Shown piece by piece: positions 40,373 through 53,879 of a DNA stretch of 64,000 bases (position 1 is the first letter of the stretch; each line of letters begins with the position of its first letter). Position numbers and translations under genes: made by a program. The notes beneath the pieces are model-generated. The model saw only the letters and a list, made by a program, of their open reading frames with translations, was not told the DNA's origin and did not search any database. This DNA is from Candidatus Poribacteria bacterium (GTDB lineage: Bacteria > Poribacteria > WGA-4E > WGA-3G). The stretch spans positions 3,648,001 to 3,712,000 of the forward strand of contig CBDANF010000003.1 of the NCBI GenBank assembly GCA_965197475.1, written 5' to 3'.

Positions 40373-42127
40373 ATGAATTTGCTACGTTACTCGCTTATTT
40401 TCATCTTCGTAACCACAATCGCTATCGCTGAAGAACCCACCCCGTTTGGCATTCCACCGTGGCAACCCACAGGCAGATACACACATCCCGATATTCGAGA
40501 GAGTTCTGGTATTGTTGTGAGTAAACAGTTTGAAGATGTCTATTGGACGTTGAACGACTCCGGCAACCCCGCACTCCTTTACGCAACAAAACGGAATGGT
40601 GAATCAATCCGAGAAATCAAAGTCCGCGGTACCCGAAATTTTGATTGGGAAGCACTCGGTATTGACGACAAGGGGCAACTCTGGATCGGTGACATCGGCA
40701 ATAACAGCAGAATGCGATTTGATTTAAATGTGGTTGTCGTGAAAGAACCGAACCCGTACACTGAGGCAGAAGCAAAAGTCATAGCGAAGTATCCGTATCA
40801 GTACCCTGATAAAAATGTAGATGCAGAAGGTCTGTTTATTGCAGATGGCATACCCTATATTGTGTCTAAAGAACAAGCAGGAGCGGTGCTTTACCGTTTT
40901 CCCGAATTGAATGCGGACGCGAAGCAGGTTTTGGAACGTGTCGGTGAGTTCGCAGGAGCGAAACAAGTTACAGGTGCTGGTATCTCGGAGGACGGAAAGC
41001 GATTGGCTGTCTGCACATACAATTCCCTCTGGGTATATCACGACGCTGCTGGCGACTTAGCACAGATGATTCAGAGAAAACCGTGGGTCTTGCGGCACAA
41101 TTTTCTTGGTGAGGCGATCTGTTTTGAAGGTTATAATCTCTATTTGACAAACGAAGCGCGCGATATCTACGCACTACCACAATTTTGGTATAAGAAACAG
41201 TGGAAAATACCACCCAAAAACACACAATCGGCAGTATCCTCGTTAGACGTGCAAGAGTCAGAGGGATATAAGTTAGAAAACTATCGTGATGCTGGGATTG
41301 ATATTGATGGTGGGCACGTTGCATTGGATGCCAAAATATCAGGCGCAGCAGTACATCAAAAGATTGAAGTTCCCTATAAAAACCTGTATGAAATCAGTGC
41401 TGTCTTGACCCAAGGACCGGAATATGGACAAGCAGAACTCACCGTTAATGGAACAAAGGTTGGTCAACCTTATGATTGCTACCACCCGGAACTGATTGCT
41501 GGAACGTTGGTAACTTTCGGCACTGTCTCACTGAACCAAGGAGATAACCAAATCATATTGAGGAGTGTCGGTAAATCAACTGAGGCGACAGGTTATAAAG
41601 TTGGAGTTGATTCCTATCAGATATTGCATGCTTCTCCGTTTGTTCGGCGTTATATGATTTTAGGTCCGTTTCCGAAGGCAGATGTCAACACGACAGTTCC
41701 ATTGATTTCTTCAGAAAACCTGCTGAATCTGAACGAAACTTATAAAGGAATTGAAGGAAAAACGATCCGTTGGCGTGAAGCAGAGACCAGAACAAGCGGT
41801 ATGCTGGATTTACGAGCGAACATCGGTATGAACACAGGCGTGGTGGGATACGCGGTTACATACATCTATACACCAAAAGCGATGGACACTGTTCTGCTGT
41901 TAGGCAGCGATGAGACGGTTACGGTGTGGTTAAACGGCACAGAGATTCACAAAAAGCGGGTCTACCGACGTATAACCCCAGATGCAGATACGATTCCGTG
42001 CCAGTTGAAAGCAGGATGGAACGCGGTTGTGTGTAGCGTTGAACAGAACAGTTGGACGTGGGCACTGTATCTACGGTTTACTGATGCAGAGGGTGTGCTT
42101 AAATATAGTCTCCAACCGAAAAAATAG
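40373..42127 (+). CDS. Secreted multidomain protein (beta-propeller plus CBM-like/PA14-like domains)
   Basis: Signal peptide; ESSGI, NDSGN, DWEAL, GDIGNN and DAEGL; C-terminal LGSDE..VWLNG..LKAGWN. Confidence 0.75.
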   Translation: MNLLRYSLIFIFVTTIAIAEEPTPFGIPPWQPTGRYTHPDIRESSGIVVSKQFEDVYWTLNDSGNPALLYATKRNGESIREIKVRGTRNFDWEALGIDDKGQLWIGDIGNNSRMRFDLNVVVVKEPNPYTEAEAKVIAKYPYQYPDKNVDAEGLFIADGIPYIVSKEQAGAVLYRFPELNADAKQVLERVGEFAGAKQVTGAGISEDGKRLAVCTYNSLWVYHDAAGDLAQMIQRKPWVLRHNFLGEAICFEGYNLYLTNEARDIYALPQFWYKKQWKIPPKNTQSAVSSLDVQESEGYKLENYRDAGIDIDGGHVALDAKISGAAVHQKIEVPYKNLYEISAVLTQGPEYGQAELTVNGTKVGQPYDCYHPELIAGTLVTFGTVSLNQGDNQIILRSVGKSTEATGYKVGVDSYQILHASPFVRRYMILGPFPKADVNTTVPLISSENLLNLNETYKGIEGKTIRWREAETRTSGMLDLRANIGMNTGVVGYAVTYIYTPKAMDTVLLLGSDETVTVWLNGTEIHKKRVYRRITPDADTIPCQLKAGWNAVVCSVEQNSWTWALYLRFTDAEGVLKYSLQPKK

Positions 42128-42149
42128 GGCGGATTACGCAGATTTCGCG

Positions 42150-43196
42150 AATTATTTATCATAATTCCTCAAATTTTTACCTAATTCTCGTATTTTTCAA
42201 ATTTTACTTGATTTTTTTTGCAGAATGTATATAATTATCGTATTGAGACAATTATATACATTTACAATTATATATAACTGTCTTGATAAGATTGTATTGC
42301 AGGAAATTACTGTAATATTCGGTTTGCTTGACTGATGTAACCAATCCTTTTCAACAGACACACCACACAAGGATGCCATAAACAAAAGGAGGTATTAAAT
42401 GTTTCGCGATATTCTTACCAACAAGTGGTTTATTGGCGGTTTTTGCTTCCTGATCGTGTTTGCTATAGCGTGTGTGTTCTGGTACCGATACGATACGGCA
42501 CCTGACAGAAAATCGGCAGCGGAGACTGCTGAACTGCTCCGGCAATGGGCAGCTAAGAAAGCGGTAACTGATAGCGAGGCAGCTGATATACCTGCAGATA
42601 GTACAACGCCAAACACGGAGAAAACAACCAGGGCAGTGGCGGAAACGGACACAAGCACCGAGGCAGAAACCAAGACATACAAAGAAGGGGACATCTACAT
42701 TGGTAAGACACCCCCGCCAATACCGGTTTCTCAAGATCAGCTTGTCTCCCCTTACGGATTCGGACCCTATCCGGAATTGCCGGAAGGGTTCGGTCCCATT
42801 ACATGGCCCCGCAAACATGCTGAATCTGAGTTAATGATACGCATGGAGATAGAACTTCTAAATCAAGGTGTTCCTGTAGAAGGAATTGTTATGAAGAATG
42901 GCTTGATATATCCTATCATCAAAGGCATCTGTTATGTGGAATGGGGTGAGACATCCTACGGAAGACGATATCTCCGCCGCTCTACCGGTCATCCTGATGA
43001 TGGCGATTACATGGAAACCATTGAAGAAGAAAGAAGAAAGCGGCATGAAAGTGTCACTGCGTCTGACTTTCCTGGTATCCAACTAATACTGTATGAAGAG
43101 GGCGGTATAGACCCCTATACCTTCCTTGATTTACCAAAATAAGGAGAAACACATGAAACGTTTTATAAGTTACACACTGATTTTTACAATACTCGC
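42150..43196. repeat. Direct repeat, copy 1 (copy 2 at ~43362-44417); boundaries approximate
   Basis: Promoter, leader, anchored-protein gene and start of the cargo gene are all duplicated. Confidence 0.9.
42399..43142 (+). CDS. N-terminally anchored hypothetical protein (copy 1)
   Basis: RBS AGGAGG; TM helix; SPYGFGPYPELP motif; ends GIDPYTFLDLPK. Confidence 0.8.
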   Translation: MFRDILTNKWFIGGFCFLIVFAIACVFWYRYDTAPDRKSAAETAELLRQWAAKKAVTDSEAADIPADSTTPNTEKTTRAVAETDTSTEAETKTYKEGDIYIGKTPPPIPVSQDQLVSPYGFGPYPELPEGFGPITWPRKHAESELMIRMEIELLNQGVPVEGIVMKNGLIYPIIKGICYVEWGETSYGRRYLRRSTGHPDDGDYMETIEEERRKRHESVTASDFPGIQLILYEEGGIDPYTFLDLPK

Positions 43197-43299
43197 GTGC
43201 ACCCTCACGGTGCTTTGGGCTGACACCAAAAAGAGAAATGTAAATCAGTATTGGGAAAATGCCTCACAACTTAAAAAATCACAGATGGGAATATCCTAA
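43153..43299 (+). pseudogene. Signal-peptide stub of a cargo gene
   Basis: RBS AAGGAG followed by MKRFISYTLIFTILACTLTVLWADTKKRNVNQYW, homologous to the N-terminus of 44374-45114 and then truncated. Confidence 0.75.
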
Positions 43300-43349
43300 T
43301 CCTGATAATCTGGTAATCCTGATAATCTGGTAATCCTGGTTCAGACAAT
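43297..43349. repeat. Short 17-bp tandem repeat (TAATCCTGATAATCTGG x ~2.5)
   Basis: Seen directly; ends in GGTTCAGACAA. Confidence 0.75.
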
Positions 43350-43616
43350 TTGCACAGATTAAGCGAATTTTTTGTCATAATTCCTCAATTTTCTACTAAT
43401 TTCCAAAATTATGCAAATTTAACTTGATTTTTTTTGCAAATTTGATATAATTCATTTTAAGACAATCGTTAATTATCTATAATTACTAAATAATTGTCTT
43501 AAGGTAATTGTATTGCAGGAAATTACTATAATACTCGGTTTGCTTGACTGTTGTGTTCTATTCTTCTCAACTGATATGTTGCATACGGGCGTGTCATAAA
43601 CAAAAGGAGGTCTAAA

Positions 43617-44363
43617 ATGTTTCGTGATATTATTGGCAATAAGTGGGTTATTGGGGGGTTTTGCTTCCTGATCGTGTTTGCTATAGCGTGTGTGTTCTGG
43701 TACCGATACGATACGGCACCTGACAGAAAATCGGCAGCGGAGACTGCTGAACTGCTCCGGCAATGGGCAGCTAAGAAAGCGGTAACTGATAGCGAGGCAG
43801 CTGATATACCTGCAGATAGTACAACGCCAAACACGGAGAAAACAACAGCTGGGACAGTGGCGGAAACGGACACAAGTGCCGATACAGAAACCAAGACATA
43901 TAAAGAAGGGGACATCTACATTGGTAAGACACCCCCGCCAATACCGGTTTCTCAAGATCAGCTTGTCTCCCCTTACGGGTTCGGACCCTATCCGGAATTG
44001 CCGGAAGGGTTCGGTCCGATTACATGGCCTCGCAGGAATGCTGAATCTGAGTTATTAACGCGTGTCAGGATCAAACTTCTAAAACAGAATGTCCCTGTTA
44101 AAGGGGTTGTTATGAAAAATGGTTTGGTATATCCTATCATCAAAGGCATCCGTTATGTGGAATGGGGTGAGACATCCTACGGAAGACGATATCTCCGCCG
44201 CTCTACCGGTCATTCTGATGATGGAGATTACATGGAACCCATTGAAGAAGAAAGAAGAAAGCGGCATGAAAGTGTTACTGCGTCTGACTTTCCTGGTATC
44301 CAACTAATACTGTATGAAGAGGGCGGTATAGACCCCTATACCTTCCTTGATTTACCAAAATAA
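43617..44363 (+). CDS. N-terminally anchored hypothetical protein (copy 2)
   Basis: Near-identical to 42399-43142. Confidence 0.8.
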   Translation: MFRDIIGNKWVIGGFCFLIVFAIACVFWYRYDTAPDRKSAAETAELLRQWAAKKAVTDSEAADIPADSTTPNTEKTTAGTVAETDTSADTETKTYKEGDIYIGKTPPPIPVSQDQLVSPYGFGPYPELPEGFGPITWPRRNAESELLTRVRIKLLKQNVPVKGVVMKNGLVYPIIKGIRYVEWGETSYGRRYLRRSTGHSDDGDYMEPIEEERRKRHESVTASDFPGIQLILYEEGGIDPYTFLDLPK

Positions 44364-44373
44364 GGAGAAACAC

Positions 44374-45114
44374 ATGAAACGTTTTATAAGTTACACACTG
44401 ATTTTTACAATACTCGGTTGTAGCACCATTTCCCTTTTTGCTTACAACGACAAAGCCAAAAAGACCGTAAATAAGTATTGGGCAGGATGTATCGCAGAAG
44501 ATTGGGATGGACCTTTATTCGCTGAAGCCTATATTATAGCGGACATAGACTATCCAGGTGAAGGCGACAATTGGCGCGAAAAAATGTCGCACAGGCTTCA
44601 GGCAATTTTAAGAGGAGGCTACGGCATTCACCTTCAGGCGTACGCCAGAGTTGACGGTGAAGCCCCAAGATGGAACGGCAAAGTTGTTAATGATTACGGA
44701 GGCGAGTATGACTTATATGCAAGTGTCTGTTATGAGGATGATGCTAAAAATGATACGTGGGAAGGAGAAGTGGATGAGAAGGTAAAAGCAGAGGATTTCA
44801 TCATATTGGATGTGGACCGCACAAATTGGGATACTATACGCGCTATTAATCAATTTCCTTGTTGGGCATGGGGTGATATAGACGGATCCAGTCCTGAAAT
44901 AGTAGCGTGGAAATGGGTAGGTATTCCGTCTGGTGAATCGGGATCGGAAACCCGGTATGTAAAAGTGCGAGATTGGAATAGATCGCGCCCTGCACTGTCC
45001 CATAATGCGGTTGCAGATGTCTGGAACTTCTCATTTTATGACACTCGAGGTGAAAATAAATGGAACTGCTTTTTCTCAGGTGATACTTCCTGTCCCGAAT
45101 GCGGTGGTAGTTGA
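44374..45114 (+). CDS. Secreted hypothetical protein with C-terminal C..CPEC
   Basis: RBS AAGGAG, signal peptide, Trp/Asp-rich mature region. Confidence 0.75.
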   Translation: MKRFISYTLIFTILGCSTISLFAYNDKAKKTVNKYWAGCIAEDWDGPLFAEAYIIADIDYPGEGDNWREKMSHRLQAILRGGYGIHLQAYARVDGEAPRWNGKVVNDYGGEYDLYASVCYEDDAKNDTWEGEVDEKVKAEDFIILDVDRTNWDTIRAINQFPCWAWGDIDGSSPEIVAWKWVGIPSGESGSETRYVKVRDWNRSRPALSHNAVADVWNFSFYDTRGENKWNCFFSGDTSCPECGGS

Positions 45115-45194: not shown

Positions 45195-48100
45195 CTACAC
45201 CTGTTCAACACTCAGCGTCGCTGGTTCGCCGTTGAGTTTCTGATCAAGACTAAATGCATTCTCACCCGGAGATTCAACGACCTCAGTCGTCAAAGTCTCC
45301 GATAGGATATAATCCCGATGTGTTTCAAACGCTTCTACCACCAGCGCGGATGATGTGTTCAAACTAAGTCTAATCCGATCAGACACATTAAAATCGGCAT
45401 CCTTCCGCATGTTCTGTATTTTGTTGACAAGTTCGCGTGCCATGCCTTCAAGCACCAACTCATGCGTCAGTTCCGTTGAAAGTGCCACAAATTTCTTCGC
45501 GTCTACTTCTACAAAAAATCCTTCCCTATTCTGTGTCTGCACGTCAATTTCTGACTGCTCAAGCGTGTAGGTTTCACCAGACGCTTCAAGCTGAAGACTC
45601 CCGTTTGATTCCAATTCCGCTTTTATCTGCATAGTATCTGCGGTAGCGAGTGCCTTTGCGATTGCCTGCACGCCTTTGCCGTACTTTGGTCCCAACACCC
45701 GGAAATTCGGTTTGAGTGTAACTTGTGCAAACGCATCTAAATCTTCTGTGAAGACAATTTCCTTAACATTCAATTCATCGTGAACAAATGCTGCCAAACG
45801 ATTGACGGTCTCTTTTTCTGTATCGGATAATCCACCAAGCGTTATTTCAGCAAGTGGTTGGCGTGTCTTAATACCGGAACGATTCCGAGCGGCATGCCCC
45901 ATACTGATGACTTCGCGTGTGAAAGCCATATCGTTTTCTAATTCAGTATCTATCAACGCAGCATCTGCGGCTGGATATTCCGCAAGGTGGACACTGAGCG
46001 GCGCATCGGGGTCAAGCGAACCGACTAAGTTGCGGTAGAGTTCATCCGCTAAAAATGGAATAAATGGCGCAGCGAGTTTCGCTACAGTAACAAGCACCTC
46101 ATAAAGCGTTGCGTAGGCAGCTTGTTTGTCCTGTCCTGCTTCCGAACCCCAGAAACGGTCGCGGGAACGGCGAACATACCAGTTGCTAAGGTCATCCACA
46201 AACGCCTCAATGGCGCGAGGTGCATTCGTGAGATGGTAATTCTCCATGTCACCGCGCACCTTGTTAATTAAGGTATGCAGGCGGGATAAAATCCATTTGT
46301 CTACGATAGCACGTTCCGCAAACGGAGGTGCATCTTGCAAGACATCAACCTGTTCTAAGTTAGCATACATCACAAAAAAACTATAAACGTTGTGAAGCGT
46401 TCCCATAAACTTTTTCAACGCTTCGTCAATACCTTCAAGTTTGAAAGTCCGCTGTGCCCAAGGCGGTGATGCTGTGAACATATACCACCGCATTGCGTCT
46501 GCACCCTGCTCGTTTAAAATCGTCCACGGATCTACCGTGTTGCCCCGACTCTTACTCATCTTCTGCCCGTCTGAAGCGAGAATTAGTTCAAGGCAGAGGC
46601 AGTTTTTATAGGCGGGTTTGTCGTAGAGGAGTGTGCCGGTTGCTAAGAGACTATAGAACCACCCGCGGGTCTGATCGATTGCTTCCGAGATGAAATCTGC
46701 GGGATAGGCACGCTCAAACAGTTCCTTGTTTTCAAAAGGATAATGCCATTGCGCGGTGTGTGCACATCCTGAGTCAAACCAACAATCAATCACATCCTGT
46801 ATGCGATGCATCGTGCTACTGCATTTCTCACAGGTAAGCACAACGTCATCCACATAAGGACGGTGCAGTTCAATATCGTCAGGCACATCGGTGCCAAGTT
46901 CCTTCAATTCGGCAATACTACCAACACAGTGTTGATGTCCACAATCGTCACAAATCCAGATTGGTAGCGGTGTTCCCCAATAACGTTCACGACTCAATCC
47001 CCAGTCGATATTATTTTCCAACCAATTACCGAACCTACCGTCTTTGATATGCTCAGGGTACCAGTTGATTTCCTGATTGTGCTGACGCATTTGGTCTCTA
47101 ATGGTGGTCGTGCGGATAAACCACGATTCGCGCGCATAGTAGAGCAGCGGGGTATCGCATCGCCAACAGAACGGATATTGGTGAGTATACTCGGTAGCTT
47201 TGAACAACAACCCTCGTCTGTCCAAGTTCTCAATGATTTTCGGGTCAGCGTCTTTGACGTATTCACCTGCCCACACATCTTTAACCTCTGCGACAAATTT
47301 GCCATCTGCCCCCACCAATTGCACTAACGGTAAATTATATTTTTGCCCAATATCGTAGTCATCTTGCCCGAAAGCGGGAGCAATATGGACTATACCGCTA
47401 CCCTCAGTCGTCGTGACGAAATCACCTGGGACAACATAATGGCATTTTTCCGGATGTTGTCCACTGTCAAAAAGCGGTTCGTATTCCCAATTGAGTAGGT
47501 CAATGCCCTTATAGTTTTCAACGATTTGCGGGGGTTCATCGCCAAATAGACTCGGCATACATTCCTTCGCGAGGATGAGGTGTTGTCCGTTCTGTTCAAC
47601 GGCGACGTAATCGAAATCTTCACCGACAGCCACAGCAACGTTAGATGGTAACGTCCACGGTGTCGTTGTCCAAACAAGTAGATAAGTATTCTCTCTGTTT
47701 TTGAGTGGAAATCGCACAAAGATGGATGGGTCATCAACTTCTTGGTAACCGAGCGCGACTTCGTGGCTTGCCAAGGTTGTGCCACACCTATAGCAATACG
47801 GTTGCACCTTATGTCCCTGATACAATAGTTTTTTATCCCATGCTTGCCGCAACACCCACCAGACACTCTCAATGTAATCGTTTGACAACGTGATATACGC
47901 CTCATCTAAATTTACCCAGAACCCGATACGTTCTGTCATCTGCCGCCAATCCTGTTCGTATTGGAAGACGTTCTCTTTGCATTTTTCAATAAAATTCTGA
48001 ACGCCGTAAGCTTCCAGTTCCGCTTTATTTGTGATGTTGAGTTGCTTTTCGACCTGATATTCTACGGGAAGTCCATGTGTGTCCCACCCCGCTTTTCTGT

Positions 48101-48338
48101 GGACGTAATGTCCTGTCATGGTCTTATAACGGCAGACAGCGTCTTTCATGATGCGTGCAAGGACGTGATGCACACCGGGCGGGGCATTTGCAAACGGTGG
48201 TCCCTCAAGAAAAATAAAGGGTGGCGCGTCTTTGTACATCTCCATACTCTTCTGAAAGATGTCGTTTTCACTCCAGAACGCTAAGATCTGTTTCTCCTTC
48301 TCAGCAAACGTGAATTGCGGTGATACCTCTTCAAACAT
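45195..48338 (-). CDS. ileS: Isoleucyl-tRNA synthetase type 2 (alternative start at 48353)
   Basis: GPPFAN, GWDTHGLP, WTTTPWTLP, CWRC, SRERYWGTP, DQTRGWFY and KMSKS; HIGH appears as GVHH. Confidence 0.97.
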   Translation of the reverse strand: MFEEVSPQFTFAEKEKQILAFWSENDIFQKSMEMYKDAPPFIFLEGPPFANAPPGVHHVLARIMKDAVCRYKTMTGHYVHRKAGWDTHGLPVEYQVEKQLNITNKAELEAYGVQNFIEKCKENVFQYEQDWRQMTERIGFWVNLDEAYITLSNDYIESVWWVLRQAWDKKLLYQGHKVQPYCYRCGTTLASHEVALGYQEVDDPSIFVRFPLKNRENTYLLVWTTTPWTLPSNVAVAVGEDFDYVAVEQNGQHLILAKECMPSLFGDEPPQIVENYKGIDLLNWEYEPLFDSGQHPEKCHYVVPGDFVTTTEGSGIVHIAPAFGQDDYDIGQKYNLPLVQLVGADGKFVAEVKDVWAGEYVKDADPKIIENLDRRGLLFKATEYTHQYPFCWRCDTPLLYYARESWFIRTTTIRDQMRQHNQEINWYPEHIKDGRFGNWLENNIDWGLSRERYWGTPLPIWICDDCGHQHCVGSIAELKELGTDVPDDIELHRPYVDDVVLTCEKCSSTMHRIQDVIDCWFDSGCAHTAQWHYPFENKELFERAYPADFISEAIDQTRGWFYSLLATGTLLYDKPAYKNCLCLELILASDGQKMSKSRGNTVDPWTILNEQGADAMRWYMFTASPPWAQRTFKLEGIDEALKKFMGTLHNVYSFFVMYANLEQVDVLQDAPPFAERAIVDKWILSRLHTLINKVRGDMENYHLTNAPRAIEAFVDDLSNWYVRRSRDRFWGSEAGQDKQAAYATLYEVLVTVAKLAAPFIPFLADELYRNLVGSLDPDAPLSVHLAEYPAADAALIDTELENDMAFTREVISMGHAARNRSGIKTRQPLAEITLGGLSDTEKETVNRLAAFVHDELNVKEIVFTEDLDAFAQVTLKPNFRVLGPKYGKGVQAIAKALATADTMQIKAELESNGSLQLEASGETYTLEQSEIDVQTQNREGFFVEVDAKKFVALSTELTHELVLEGMARELVNKIQNMRKDADFNVSDRIRLSLNTSSALVVEAFETHRDYILSETLTTEVVESPGENAFSLDQKLNGEPATLSVEQV

Positions 48339-48370
48339 GCGAAATTCCCTCATTAGTCTCAGTAATTGTT

Positions 48371-48419
48371 AAAAAACAAAACGCCCCACCGAAATTGTCT
48401 GTTTCAGTGATGGGCGCGT
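48371..48419 (-). terminator. Attenuator terminator upstream of ileS
   Basis: CGCCCATCACTGAAA..TTTCGGTGGGGCG followed by TTTTGTTTTTT on the minus strand. Confidence 0.8.
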
Positions 48420-48447
48420 CTCAATAATACTTCTTATCTGCTTGTGA

Positions 48448-48576
48448 TTAACCCACCACAACACGACGAATAGCAATAATAATGTGTATGACGCGAAGGT
48501 GGTCTTGATGTCCGGCAGTGTCGCGCGCAGACCTTTTGTATTGCGATGTGAGTGTGGTAAGCGATTGATAAAGCAT
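48448..48576 (-). CDS. Ile-rich leader peptide of ileS (42 aa)
   Basis: MLYQSLTTLTSQYKRSARDTAGHQDHLRVIHIIIAIRRVVVG; AGGA upstream; all five Ile codons fall within seven codons. Confidence 0.75.
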   Translation of the reverse strand: MLYQSLTTLTSQYKRSARDTAGHQDHLRVIHIIIAIRRVVVG

Positions 48577-48612
48577 CTTATAATCCTGATTAGATTGTAT
48601 GTTTATTAATGT

Positions 48613-48642
48613 ATGATACTACATGCTATAGTGTGATGTCAA
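48613..48642 (-). promoter_or_regulatory. Promoter of leader-ileS
   Basis: TTGACA-18 nt-TATCAT. Confidence 0.6.
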
Positions 48643-48705
48643 ATCTTTTTGGTACAAATCCTGAGAATTAGTGTATAATGGATATAGTTGAAAGGAAACA
48701 CCTTT

Positions 48706-50182
48706 ATGGAACAAGAAAAAGATAGTTCACTCAAGCAGAATACCATAGAAACACAAGGTGCCACGGTTTGCCTTGAAATAGAAAACCCTTGCTATATAGA
48801 TGGAATTCTGGTAGCAGTTCAAGGTTTCCGGGGTAGTGGTTTCTTTGTAGAACGCGACAAAATTGTAACAAACGTTCATGTCCTTGCTGGAGCAACAAAA
48901 GTCACAGCAATGCACGTTGACACAGAAACAGTTTACACTATATTGAAGGCATCATAGCATTTGATGATATAAACGACCTCGCTGTTTTAAAGGTTGCAGA
49001 AGAACGGACATCATTTCCCCTCGGTGACAGCAGTATAGTTCGGAAAGGTGACCAAGTTTGTGTTATAGGTTACCCTAAGAAAAAAGTGAGCAGCGTGGAA
49101 AGCACTGTACACAGCATCCGAAATAGCGGCAAACACCTGTGGCTAAATTTTAAGCTTTATGAAGGGAATAGCGGAGGTCCCGTGCTAAACGTTAAAGGTG
49201 AAGTAATAGCCGTTGCCGCAGCTGGAGAAATATCTTTTGATAACAGCGCACCGGGGACAGGTAGAACCATTTCCTCCAATGTTCTCAAGTTTCTGCTGAA
49301 GGAGGAAAGAAACGTGGAACCTATTAATGTATGGCAAGAACGTTCACAAATACGTGCCTATGTAGCAGCATATGAAGGAGATGATAATCGAGAACAAGGT
49401 GAATATAAGGAGGCAATAGTACACTATGATACTGCTCTCAAACTTAATCCTGATTTGTCGGACATCTACAATAATCGAGCCTCAACTAAGTTTTCCATAG
49501 GGAGGTATGATGAAGCATTTGCAGATTCACTTACTGCTCTCCGACTCGAACCTGAACGATTTAGTTTTTCAGGTTTTGGGACATTCTGTTTATGGAAGTG
49601 GAAAATTGCCAAACTTTTTTTAATGAGTCTTATTCTCAGGTTTATAAGGAATGTATTTGGTGCAGATAATTGGTTGGCAATTCAAGGGCAGGTGAAGTTC
49701 CGTCTTGCCAAAGCAAGAGCTGAACAAGGAAATATAGCAGAAGCTCGAAATTTATACCGAGCGGGATTGACAACTTTACGGAAGCTATCAATCAAAGACC
49801 GAAGAGAGGAAAATTCTATAATGGGCGGGAATGGGTGAAATACCTCTTGGGGCAACTTGAAACTAAAAAAGGAAACACCGCGGAGGCACAAAAACTATAT
49901 CAAGAAGCGGCCTCCGACGGTGATGAAGCACTCCGGTTAGAGTCAAAGAATACTAAACGTCGGTCTGCTATCTATCACACTCGTGGTGCTGCAAAAGCTG
50001 CCTTAAGCGATCATTACGGTGCCATAGAAGATTTCAATGAATCCATCCGACTCAGACCAAAGAAGGCATTGTACTATAACGACCGTGGGCTTTCAAAAGA
50101 AGCACTCGGACAGCAGGAAGATGCGGAGGCAGATTTTGCGAAAGCAAAGGAATTAGACCAAGATTTTAAAGACAAGTCTTAG
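48706..50182 (+). pseudogene. Trypsin-like protease-TPR gene with two frameshifts (~48940 and ~49765)
   Basis: Three ORF pieces are collinear with intact paralog 50216-51919 (TNVHV, DLAVL, GNSGGP). Confidence 0.85.
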
Positions 50183-50215: not shown

Positions 50216-51919
50216 ATGCAACAAGAAAGAGACAATCTATCCCAGCAAAATGTAGAAGAAATCATAGGTACAGTTGTTCGCTTGGAAAACGCCTATGAGG
50301 GTAAGGATAAAACCGGTAGAGGCAGTGGGTTTTTCATTGAACCTGACAAAATTGTTACCAACGTTCATGTTCTCATTGACGGCGAATTAGTCGGAGTAAA
50401 GTGTCAAAAAACAGGAACAGCTTACACTGTTGAAGGTATTATAGCCTTTGACGATATAAATGACCTCGCTGTTTTAAAGATTGTAGAAAAAGCTACGCCA
50501 TTTCCTCTTGGCGACAGCAGGAGGGTTCGGATAGGTGACCGAGTCTGTCTCATAGGTTGTCGTGAAGGAAAAGTAAACCGCGTGGAAGGCACTGTGGATA
50601 GCATCCGAAATAGCGGTAAACACCACTGGATAGAATTCAATATTCCTTCTGGACGAGGGTATAGCGGTAGTCCTGTACTGAATGCTAAAGGCGAAGTTGT
50701 TTCCGTTGTCCAATCTTCAGAAGCATATTCTAAACAAGATACACCAACAAAATACAGAACTATTTCCTCAAATGTTCTCAAACTTCCGTTGGAACATACC
50801 GGAGAAGTGGAGTCTCTTGAAACATGGCAAAATAGGGATCGCATACGTGCTTATGTAAAATATAATGATGGCTATCTTAGTAGTCAACACGGTGATATAA
50901 AGGAAGCAATAGCACTCTATGACGCTGCCATAAAACTCAACCCTGATGTGGCTGATGCCTACAATGGCAGAGCCGTAGCGAAGAAGTCCTTAGCGAAATT
51001 GGACGAGGCACTCCCTGATTCACTCGCTGCCCTCAAACTCAATCGGGAACGATTTAGTTTTTCGCGATTTGGGATATTCCTTTCATGGAAGTGGAGAGTT
51101 ATCAAACTTTCTGTCGCCTGCCGTTTGCAAAGATTCATAAGGAGTATATTTGGGGAAGATAAGTGGCTCAATATTCAAGTACAGGTGAGGTTACGTGTCG
51201 CCAAAACAAGAATTACGCAGGGAAAAACGTCAGAAGCTCTAAATATATACCAAGCAGTAATTGATGACTTTACTGAAGTTATTATTCAGGGACCGATTGA
51301 AGCGAAACAGAAAAACCTGAGCGCGGCACGAAGATTATATCAAGAGGCAATTGGCGATCTTACTGAAGTTATCAATCAAAAACAGAAGCCGGTACGATCC
51401 TACTATAACAGGGGAAGATCAAAATATATTTTCGGAGAATTTGAAAATCAACTGCAAAATTTGGATACGGCACAAAAACTTTATCAAAGTGCAATAAGCG
51501 ACTATACTGAAGCTATTAATTTAAAAATAGGAGGGTTGTACACCTACAATCACCGTGGACAGACAAAATATCAGTTAGCAAAGGTTGAAACGAAACAGGG
51601 GAATACCACAGCATCGCAAAACCTATATCAAGAGATCGTAGCCGATAATGATAAGGCACTTGGGTTAGAAGGAAAATGTGTCGCATGTCGTACTGCTATC
51701 CATCACATTCGCGGCGTGGCAAAAGCTGCACTTGATGATCATGAGGGTGCAATTGAAGATTTCAATGAATCCATTCGCCTAAATCCGAATAAAGCTCTCT
51801 ACTACAACGAGCGTGGGAAGGCAAAAGAAGCACTTGGGCGGCACGAAGCAGCAGAAGCCGACTTTACGAAAGCAAAAGAATTAGACCCGGATTTGAAAAT
51901 AAGTCAAACTAACAAATGA
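50216..51919 (+). CDS. Trypsin-like serine protease plus TPR repeats, no signal peptide
   Basis: GSGFF, TNVHV, NDLAVL and GYSGSP; multiple TPRs. Confidence 0.85.
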   Translation: MQQERDNLSQQNVEEIIGTVVRLENAYEGKDKTGRGSGFFIEPDKIVTNVHVLIDGELVGVKCQKTGTAYTVEGIIAFDDINDLAVLKIVEKATPFPLGDSRRVRIGDRVCLIGCREGKVNRVEGTVDSIRNSGKHHWIEFNIPSGRGYSGSPVLNAKGEVVSVVQSSEAYSKQDTPTKYRTISSNVLKLPLEHTGEVESLETWQNRDRIRAYVKYNDGYLSSQHGDIKEAIALYDAAIKLNPDVADAYNGRAVAKKSLAKLDEALPDSLAALKLNRERFSFSRFGIFLSWKWRVIKLSVACRLQRFIRSIFGEDKWLNIQVQVRLRVAKTRITQGKTSEALNIYQAVIDDFTEVIIQGPIEAKQKNLSAARRLYQEAIGDLTEVINQKQKPVRSYYNRGRSKYIFGEFENQLQNLDTAQKLYQSAISDYTEAINLKIGGLYTYNHRGQTKYQLAKVETKQGNTTASQNLYQEIVADNDKALGLEGKCVACRTAIHHIRGVAKAALDDHEGAIEDFNESIRLNPNKALYYNERGKAKEALGRHEAAEADFTKAKELDPDLKISQTNK

Positions 51920-53048: not shown

Positions 53049-53879
53049 ATGGAGCAGCGAGAAATGGTTACGGCATTACGGACAGACTTTTCGGTTCGGC
53101 AGATATGTGAGACACTCGGTTTCAACCGAAGCAACCTCTATTATCACTCCAAGCAGGCCCCGTGTGAAGCGGGCCTCCAGGATGAAATAGAGACGTTATC
53201 TTTGCTATATCCAACATACGGATATAGGCGTCCCACACAGTTGTTGGTGCGTAGCGGATACACCATCGGGTATAAACGTGTTGCCCGATTGATGAAGTCC
53301 GCCAACCTCTCGGTTTCTGTCAAGCGTGTCTGTCAAACCACGACATCCGTTGCGGGTGTGCGTCCCTGGAGCAATCGCCTTGAAAACCTTGATGTCTCCC
53401 GATGTAATCAGGTCTGGGTGGGCGATATTACCTACGTCCGCCTCAAAGGACACTTTATCTATGTTTGTCTGCTCATGGATGTCTTCACTCGCATGATCAG
53501 AGGGTGGCATATCAGTCAACACTTGACGCAATCTCTGACGTTGAAACCCTTGGAGACAGCATTATGTCAAAGTGTCCCAGAGATCCATCATTCTGATCAA
53601 GGCGTTCAATATCTTTCAAATGCGTCCATCTCACTGCTTAGGCATCATGGGATTGAGATTTCAGTCGCCCGGAGAGGGTGTCCTTGGGAGAACGGATATG
53701 CTGAAAGACTTATCCGCACGCTCAAGGAAGAAGAAGTTCATCTCAATGACTATGAGGACATCCACGAAGCAAGAACCCGCATTGGGCATTTTATTACACA
53801 AGTGTATAATCACAAACGCCCTCACTCTGCGTTAGGGTATTTGACACCTGTGGAATTTGAGCAAAAAAACTTGTCTTAA
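53049..53879 (+). CDS. IS3 OrfB (DDE integrase core), in the -1 frame
   Basis: YGYRR, WVGDITY, HHSDQGVQY, ENGYAE and RPHSALGY. Confidence 0.9.
   Translation: MEQREMVTALRTDFSVRQICETLGFNRSNLYYHSKQAPCEAGLQDEIETLSLLYPTYGYRRPTQLLVRSGYTIGYKRVARLMKSANLSVSVKRVCQTTTSVAGVRPWSNRLENLDVSRCNQVWVGDITYVRLKGHFIYVCLLMDVFTRMIRGWHISQHLTQSLTLKPLETALCQSVPEIHHSDQGVQYLSNASISLLRHHGIEISVARRGCPWENGYAERLIRTLKEEEVHLNDYEDIHEARTRIGHFITQVYNHKRPHSALGYLTPVEFEQKNLS

Follow-up and report, generated by a model that had tools for sequence, protein, structure and literature searches.

The 64,000-nucleotide (nt) stretch of DNA analysed here as a whole (the window; contig CBDANF010000003.1, positions 3,648,001 to 3,712,000, of the Candidatus Poribacteria bacterium assembly GCA_965197475.1) comes from a genome of the sponge-associated Poribacteria. 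It carries on its minus strand ileS, the gene for isoleucine--tRNA ligase (IleRS), preceded by a leader region that lies between ileS and a divergent plus-strand gene starting near 48706. A first reading of the letters alone (the original prediction) had described this leader, in order, as a promoter, a 42-residue open reading frame (ORF) with isoleucine codons close to its end, a GC-rich hairpin with a U tract and ileS, and had proposed attenuation of ileS by the ribosome translating the ORF. As judged from its sequence and that of its relatives, the element is most likely a leader-peptide transcription attenuator of the trp/pheST type, which would sense the charging of Ile-tRNA through the ribosome and regulate ileS in response.

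The leader region in the window

All parts of the leader that the original prediction had named were recovered in the window (Table 1), including the promoter (TTGACA, 18 nt, TATCAT) and the ORF at 48576..48448, which ends in the very codons quoted at the time. The GC hairpin followed by a U tract and then by ileS was borne out as well. The hairpin (48416..48382), separated from the leader ORF by a spacer of 32 nt, is built as CGCCC-AU-CACUGAAA, a 7-nt loop and UUUCGGUG-GGGCG, and it folds with -19.9 kcal/mol (z = -3.64), a value that none of 200 shuffled sequences attained. The downstream protein matched the ileS family TIGR00392 with E = 3.6e-292 and 971.6 bits, against a curated cut-off of 621.4; the ATG at 48353, taken as the ileS start in a mechanical ORF list, was ruled out, the MFEEVS start being common to the relatives. 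Furthermore, the end of the leader had been said to pair, with G-U, with the 5' arm of the terminator, and it does: GTGGTGGGT (48459..48451) and GCCCATCAC (48415..48407) form 9 base pairs (bp), two of them G-U, and when the 92 nt upstream were shuffled 2000 times, a duplex with the terminator 5' arm as good as this one arose in only 8 cases. To the first reading we add a conserved segment 1 (48562..48553), which forms a 1:2 helix with the antiterminator strand; since segment 1 pairs with segment 2, the classical scheme of three helices is complete. Scanning of the whole 64-kb window for ORFs with amino-acid runs and terminators returned three candidates, among which the ileS leader had the highest run and the strongest hairpin; the other two were weak, lay inside other regions and were not comparable to it.

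Table 1. Features of the ileS leader region in the window, listed from the promoter towards ileS.
Feature	Position	Strand	Description
Sigma-70-type promoter	48613..48642	-	TTGACA 48642..48637, 18-nt spacer, TATCAT 48618..48613; 11/12 consensus positions
Shine-Dalgarno-like AGGA	48584..48587	-	7 nt 5' of the leader ATG; read from the sequence
Leader ORF, 42 codons + TAA	48448..48576	-	Translation MLYQSLTTLTSQYKRSARDTAGHQDHLRVIHIIIAIRRVVVG*
Segment 1, GCTTACCACA, codons 5-8	48553..48562	-	Putative anti-antiterminator, partner segment 2; in the minimum free energy (MFE) fold of the window leader
GCAATA, 5' strand of the second 1:2 helix	48539..48544	-	Partner TATTGC within the Ile run
Putative regulatory Ile cluster, ATA CAC ATT ATT ATT GCT ATT	48469..48489	-	Ile at codons 30, 32-34 and 36
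Segment 2, TGTGGTGGGT, last nt of codon 39 to codon 42	48451..48460	-	Strand common to helices 1:2 and 2:3
Leader stop TAA	48448..48450	-	Abuts segment 2
Segment 3, terminator 5' arm CGCCCATCACTGAAA	48402..48416	-	Its GCCCATCAC (48415..48407) also pairs with segment 2
Segment 4, terminator 3' arm TTTCGGTGGGGCG	48382..48394	-	Hairpin fold of the window
U tract TTTTGTTTTTT	48371..48381	-	Directly 3' of the hairpin
ileS ribosome-binding site GAGGG	48347..48351	-	Read from the sequence
ileS, 1047-residue isoleucine--tRNA ligase, putatively regulated gene	45195..48338	-	TIGR00392; start ATG 48338

Conservation of the element among relatives

To collect relatives, one genome per species was searched with IleRS residues 1-350, and the best 80 of 254 confirmed loci were analysed; they are labelled Candidatus or uncultured Poribacteria, or uncultured bacterium, and their IleRS identity is 79-95%. 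A search with the window leader (nhmmer) located the element 5' of ileS in 77 of the 80 loci, which come from different species. Among the three loci that gave no match, one (L075) has no upstream sequence, and the contigs of L044 and L048 extend only 151 and 501 nt beyond ileS on that side. With a profile of the 3' half of the leader we found exactly one copy each in 78 of 81 sources (the window and 77 loci) and no second copy in the remainder of the 64-kb window or of the 7-kb loci. The element is always upstream of ileS and on the same strand. Its recurrence in relatives is the most telling evidence that the features of the leader exceed chance. Leaving out two leaders cut by contig ends (L054 and L055), 76 complete leaders including that of the window were compared. 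The promoter claimed in the window recurs among them, the pattern TTGAC[AT]-N15-19-TAnnnT being present 5' of the leader in 75 of the 76, as far as sequence evidence goes.

The window leader holds 5 Ile in 7 codons. Given the background of 7.1% Ile among the 15,840 codons of the long ORFs in the window, 5 or more Ile would fall into 7 codons by chance with a probability of 3.4e-5 for each such stretch and of about 1e-3 for an ORF of leader size. Of the 76 leaders, 74 have 4 or more Ile among their last 15 codons (4 in 13 leaders, 5 in 53, 6 in 7 and 7 in 1), and the longest Ile run comprises 3 codons in 58 leaders and, by in-frame expansion of ATT, 4 or 5 codons in 8. The Ile codons in these last 15 positions are ATT (287), ATA (74) and ATC (9), and ATG substitutions occur 9 times. 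As to codon choice within the cluster, ATA (48487-48489 in the window), which makes up 74 of the 370 Ile codons, is almost confined to the first Ile position of the alignment and is also the rarest Ile codon of the window (1.46% versus 3.04% for ATT). Given that ATA is decoded by a separate tRNA-Ile, the leader may sample both tRNA-Ile isoacceptors.

Subsequently, we examined the reading frame in 75 leaders anchored on segment 1. In 72 of the 75, the number of nt between segment 1 and the stop codon is divisible by three, with nine different lengths from 84 to 150 nt, and ATG stands at the anchored position in 69. Stops in the leader frame were met in 2 of 75 leaders, as compared with 47 in the +1 frame and 61 in the +2 frame, and both of these (L037 and L006) are anchoring errors, the leaders in question having intact ATG-initiated ORFs of 39 and 37 residues. 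One leader (L064) lacks the ATG and has an in-frame GTG just 5' of segment 1, and in two (L073 and L040) the usual start codon reads ACG, with an ATG four codons downstream. Peptide lengths among the relatives are 28, 36, 37, 39, 41, 42 (n=19), 45, 46, 48 (n=28), 49 and 50 residues, and the stop codon is TAA in 74 of 76 leaders. Within the middle of the ORF, diversity by codon position is flat, with 0.36/0.38/0.34 for the class of 42 codons and 0.24/0.22/0.22 for that of 48 codons; in the first 40 codons of ileS from the same loci (without the window row), used as a control, the values were 0.10/0.04/0.32 and 0.07/0.05/0.29, that is, with an excess at the third position. The mid-ORF also carries many indels among relatives. 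Flat variation across codon positions together with an open frame shows that the frame is conserved and the peptide is not, its middle drifting neutrally; an open frame free of amino-acid constraint is how a leader peptide would be expected to look.

These data also bear on the alternative that the ORF encodes a functional small protein, or that the terminated transcript of roughly 240 nt is an independent small RNA, with the proximity of ileS being incidental. Promoter, ORF and terminator do make up a complete transcription unit, and in many relatives ileS starts 100 to >600 nt further downstream. Nevertheless, a functional protein is hard to reconcile with a mid-peptide that shows no codon-position bias and many indels, and the leader peptide had no match in NCBIfam or Pfam with E up to 10. 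Neither a small protein nor a small RNA would account for a single element per source that is always 5' of ileS and on its strand, nor for a cluster of precisely the amino acid that the downstream gene product handles. We therefore regard this alternative as very unlikely.

Conservation within the ORF is highest over its 13 C-terminal codons, where the per-position variability is 0.03-0.15, as might be expected if the attenuator depended on translation in another way, either reporting general translation capacity or coupling, or responding to arrest of the ribosome by the conserved nascent C-terminus IIIAIRRAVVG. Two leaders (L029 and L060, the latter with 20 nt extra after the leader stop) point in the same direction and weigh against Ile sensing, having only 2 Ile and yet keeping the RNA structures. 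However, the third codon positions of segment 2 are either invariant or vary only as C/U opposite G, while the codons just 5' of it are free at the third position (CGT/CGC/CGG, ATT/ATC, GCT/GCA) and the second Arg is replaced by Q, L, C, H or Y in relatives. Third positions bound by pairing in segment 2 and free ones upstream suggest that the constraint on segment 2 lies on the RNA, and this speaks against an arrest peptide. Furthermore, growth of the Ile run by whole ATT units in 8 of 76 leaders fits neither general translation sensing nor arrest, and a stall at the stop codon would mask segment 2 and favour termination, with no obvious benefit. We consider both versions of this explanation improbable, and sensing of Ile-tRNA through the Ile codons the better account of the leader.

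Competing helices and the candidate mechanism

The pairing potentials of the leader were evaluated on the alignment. In the 2:3 antiterminator, formed by GUGGUGGG(C/U) and GCCCAUCAC, 673 of 675 cells (99.7%) are paired, compared with 33-70% in slid controls, and its score was reached by 1 of 500 shuffles; the sequences are related, so that this and the other high pairing percentages partly reflect common ancestry. Variation at the pair 54-111 (CG in 57 sequences, UG in 14 and UA in 4) includes a single compensatory switch from C-G to U-A, and the other changes in this helix are from G-U to A-U or from G-C to G-U. The 1:2 helix joins GCUUACCACA (codons 5-8) with UGUGGUGGGC and, in addition, GCAAUA with UAUUGC of the Ile run. 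Over its 16 pairs 95.1% of 1201 cells are paired (29-60% in slid controls), with 95.7% for helix 3 and 88.0% for the outermost A-T pair (helix 4). Changes on both sides of a 1:2 pair occur in 5 single cells, a number reached by 0 of 500 shuffles.

For the terminator, counting of pairs on the alignment was tried and abandoned, giving 85.8% paired and no signal over shuffles; the 3' arm exists in two registers, TTTCGGTGGGGCG (GGGGCG) or TTTCAGTGAGGGTG (AGGGTG), either of which pairs with the near-invariant 5' arm. Because a single structure line cannot describe two registers, the terminator was folded sequence by sequence. All 76 leaders form the hairpin, with -13.4 to -20.5 kcal/mol (mean -17.3), and all have a T-rich run 3' of it; in the upper stem, U-G and U-A alternate in 46 and 29 sequences, respectively. 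On average the duplexes become more stable from 1:2 (-13.2 kcal/mol) through 2:3 (-16.1) to 3:4 (-19.0), and in 75 of the 76 leaders segment 3 follows the stop codon at a distance of 27-32 nt. RNAalifold, run on the full alignment, returned a hybrid of the 2:3 core GUGGGC:GCCCAU and the upper terminator stem, without the 1:2 helix. Anatomy, conservation, open frame, Ile cluster, pairing potentials and energy order are thus observed in the sequences themselves.

The extreme nucleotide conservation of segments 2 and 3 might also be expected of a leader bound by a factor, either uncharged tRNA-Ile as in T-boxes or IleRS itself, with the ORF being irrelevant. Control of the first kind is described for ileS of Actinobacteria in passages of PMC1262725. 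On the other hand, with Rfam at gathering thresholds no family was found in the whole window, neither a T-box nor an amino-acid operon leader such as the Leu, His, Thr and Trp leaders, and at E up to 10 the region 48200..48800 gave only two chance matches to eukaryotic RNAs. For the second kind, E. coli thrS is an example of a synthetase acting on its own leader. Nevertheless, frame and ATG are kept through nine length variants, which a switch made purely of RNA would not need, and a factor-bound leader is accordingly a very unlikely explanation of the locus. The Rfam result also fits the contrast with T-box control of ileS that had been drawn in the original prediction.

A ribosome-mediated attenuator could operate here as follows. 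Transcription would start at the conserved promoter, and the leader RNA could adopt three mutually exclusive helices, 1:2, 2:3 (antiterminator) and 3:4 (intrinsic terminator). In a leader that is not translated, segment 2 would be held in 1:2, so that 3:4 would form and transcription would stop at about 48372. With plentiful Ile-tRNA, the ribosome would reach the TAA and cover segment 2, and 3:4 would form again. When charged tRNA-Ile is scarce, owing to low isoleucine or low IleRS activity, the ribosome would stall at codons 30-36 with its leading edge ending just 5' of segment 2. There it would sit between segments 1 and 2 and open GCAAUA:UAUUGC, and the free segment 2 could pair with the emerging segment 3 before segment 4 is made. 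The 2:3 helix would then block the stem beside the U tract, and RNA polymerase would read into ileS. The spacing in the leader is compatible with such a course, the last Ile codon being 8 nt upstream of segment 2 and the stop codon following directly after it. If a ribosome is taken to cover the RNA to about 15 nt beyond the first base in the P site, as is established, any of the five Ile codons in the A site would leave GUGGUGGGC exposed, whereas Val, Gly or stop codons there would cover it. With the same assumed footprint masking the Ile run, nascent transcripts that extend to the terminator loop formed 2:3 in 75 of 76 leaders. The footprint geometry, the kinetic competition and the response to Ile-tRNA are what we infer from these arrangements.

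Equilibrium folding of the full leader with ribosome masks was tried as well and revealed no switch, the 2:3 helix appearing only in the fold of the nascent transcript. Several results have to be set against the proposed mechanism. In 72-73 of 76 cases the MFE fold of the full leader contains the terminator, and this holds with no ribosome, with one stalled at Ile and with one at the stop codon. The antiterminated conformer is less stable than the MFE fold by a mean of 7.8 kcal/mol and comes within 2 kcal/mol of it in only 3 of 76 leaders. As the terminator is the equilibrium fold in all states, readthrough, and with it antitermination, must be kinetic; the switch of the trp attenuator is likewise accepted as kinetic. 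In addition, the Ile codons lie just 5' of segment 2 and not, as in trp, in segment 1, which the stalled ribosome would leave uncovered and which could thus compete for segment 2. We suppose that 2:3 would outcompete 1:2 through its greater stability and shorter loop.

Covariation is scarce as well. In 2:3, changes on both sides are limited to one pair in one clade of 4 sequences, and the A at the switched position of that same clade also pairs with U in the terminator 3' arm. In 1:2 they are confined to the 5 single cells, and in 15 of 75 leaders the third base of one Thr codon in segment 1 is mismatched (G-G or A-G). The structural support therefore appears to consist mostly of conservation and wobble-compatible changes among related sequences. 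Furthermore, the closest relative (L078, 95% IleRS identity; leader at L078:2559-2827) carries 3 additional nt behind the leader ATG and 1 additional nt in the mid-ORF, the latter of which shifts the frame by +1 and puts the Ile run out of frame; the leader may truly be decaying, or the assembly may be wrong at this point. In leaders of the "MDKK" class the Shine-Dalgarno-like element is poor, being weaker or nearer to the start codon, with GAG only 1-3 nt from the ATG. Finally, in most relatives a sequence of 45 to >600 nt is inserted between the terminator and ileS, and such insertions could carry signals of their own.

The attenuation logic of the original prediction is supported by the comparative data on frame (72/75), Ile cluster (74/76), terminator (76/76) and antiterminator pairing (673/675 cells), and it is qualified by equilibrium folds that favour the terminator throughout. 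Of the checks suggested with it, the alignment of ileS upstream regions confirmed conservation of the Ile cluster and of the pairing and gave thin covariation, and the folding of alternative structures gave 2:3 in 75 of 76 nascent transcripts and no switch in the full leader.

Known systems and neighbouring sequences

Control of aminoacyl-tRNA synthetase genes by leader peptides is already known. Passages of PMC1262725 name pheST as such a gene of gamma-proteobacteria, place leader peptides 5' of trpS and leuS in Streptomyces and describe the ileS T-boxes of Actinobacteria as acting on translation. In the passages seen of PMC4117421, ribosome profiling of Caulobacter crescentus defined an "ileS leader CDS" (coding sequence; CCNA_03934, 45 nt, 796784..796828), which is 78 nt upstream of ileS, whose end is given as 796705. 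Like the Poribacteria leader it is a short translated ORF directly 5' of ileS; it has, however, only 14 codons, and those passages report no mechanism for it. The Caulobacter gene adjoining ileS and the leader CDS encodes a DegQ-family trypsin-like protease (PMC4117421), as does the neighbour in the window; this shared neighbour is probably a coincidence. We found no literature joining Poribacteria with an attenuator, nor any joining ileS, leader, ribosome profiling, isoleucine and attenuation, although earlier predictions for ileS in other phyla are possible.

The attenuation of amino-acid and aminoacyl-tRNA genes is reportedly surveyed by Lopatovskaya et al. (2010). One of the nearest known counterparts is the attenuator of E. 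coli pheST with its leader peptide, pheM. Both systems combine a leader peptide rich in cognate codons, an intrinsic terminator and a synthetase gene, and in both charged tRNA, the product of the enzyme itself, would feed back on transcription. The ileS leader differs in its amino acid and gene (Ile and ileS), in its greater length (28-50 codons) and in belonging to another, uncultivated phylum, and it has no sequence relationship to pheST. With E. coli trp it shares the three exclusive helices, whose energies in ileS rise from 1:2 to 3:4, the presumed covering of segment 2 by a ribosome at the stop codon and a terminator that wins thermodynamically, with antitermination being kinetic. The layout is a variant, though. 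The regulatory codons of trp lie within segment 1, whereas the putative sensing codons of the ileS leader are in the 3' strand of the 1:2 hairpin, 5' of segment 2, so that the stalled ribosome would open 1:2 from the other side and leave segment 1 uncovered. In enterobacterial ilv leaders (ilvL, ivbL), Ile and Val codons sense branched-chain aminoacyl-tRNA; there the genes controlled are those of biosynthesis and the codons a mixture of Ile, Val and Leu, while the ileS leader stands before a synthetase gene and its cluster consists almost entirely of Ile. The T-boxes of ileS, found in Firmicutes and, in a translational form, in Actinobacteria, have in common with it the gene, the signal of tRNA-Ile charging and the use of alternative RNA structures. 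They bind uncharged tRNA directly and need no translation, in contrast to the Poribacteria leader with its conserved translated frame and lack of a T-box match.

The regulation of synthetase genes outside model phyla is poorly charted, with T-boxes in Firmicutes and Actinobacteria and pheST leader attenuation in proteobacteria, and the Poribacteria ileS attenuator would add an example of Ile-tRNA being sensed by the ribosome itself. We put forward only tentatively, at somewhat less than even chances, that this is the first described Ile-codon leader-peptide attenuator of an ileS gene, Poribacteria-wide and of a variant layout with the codons on the 3' strand of 1:2. If the mechanism holds, these sponge symbionts would rely on tight coupling of transcription and translation, and the ratio of terminated to read-through leader in metatranscriptomes would report isoleucine limitation in the sponge. 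The 76 natural variants, with leaders and Ile runs of different length and with different helix registers, also lend themselves to a study of attenuator design.

The spacer between terminator and ileS is a hot spot of repeats, and BLAST sorts the spacers into five families. In six loci (L003, L004, L005, L014, L035 and L078) the old ileS start is interrupted after its first 8 bases by about 115 nt of inserted DNA, and a relic ribosome-binding site and an ORF of 12-13 codons starting MFES are left behind. The insertion supplies a new ribosome-binding site, CCAGGAGGC, followed by the restored start ATGTTTGAAGAG (spacers of L003, L005, L014 and L078). A nearly identical sequence closes the spacers of L022 and L038, and in that of L038 (623 nt) a unit of about 190 nt occurs three times in tandem. 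Short tandem repeats of the TCAGTTA type occur in the spacers of L006 and L024, and the spacer of L012 is also among those bearing repeats.

As for other genes in the window, the plus-strand region 48706-50182, divergent from the leader, appears to be a broken gene for a trypsin-like serine protease with TPR repeats, split into three ORFs (48706-48957, 49086-49838 and 49835-50182). It is directly followed by an intact paralogue of 567 residues (50216-51919, plus strand) with protease and TPR matches. Four consecutive plus-strand ORFs of 584, 247, 248 and 255 residues without an NCBIfam match occupy 40373-45114, and the three adjacent ones of about 250 residues, being alike in size, may be paralogues. 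An IS3-family transposase ORF (NF033516, E = 1.1e-79) is located at 53049-53879 on the plus strand, and the small overlapping ORFs just 5' of it may represent its first frame.

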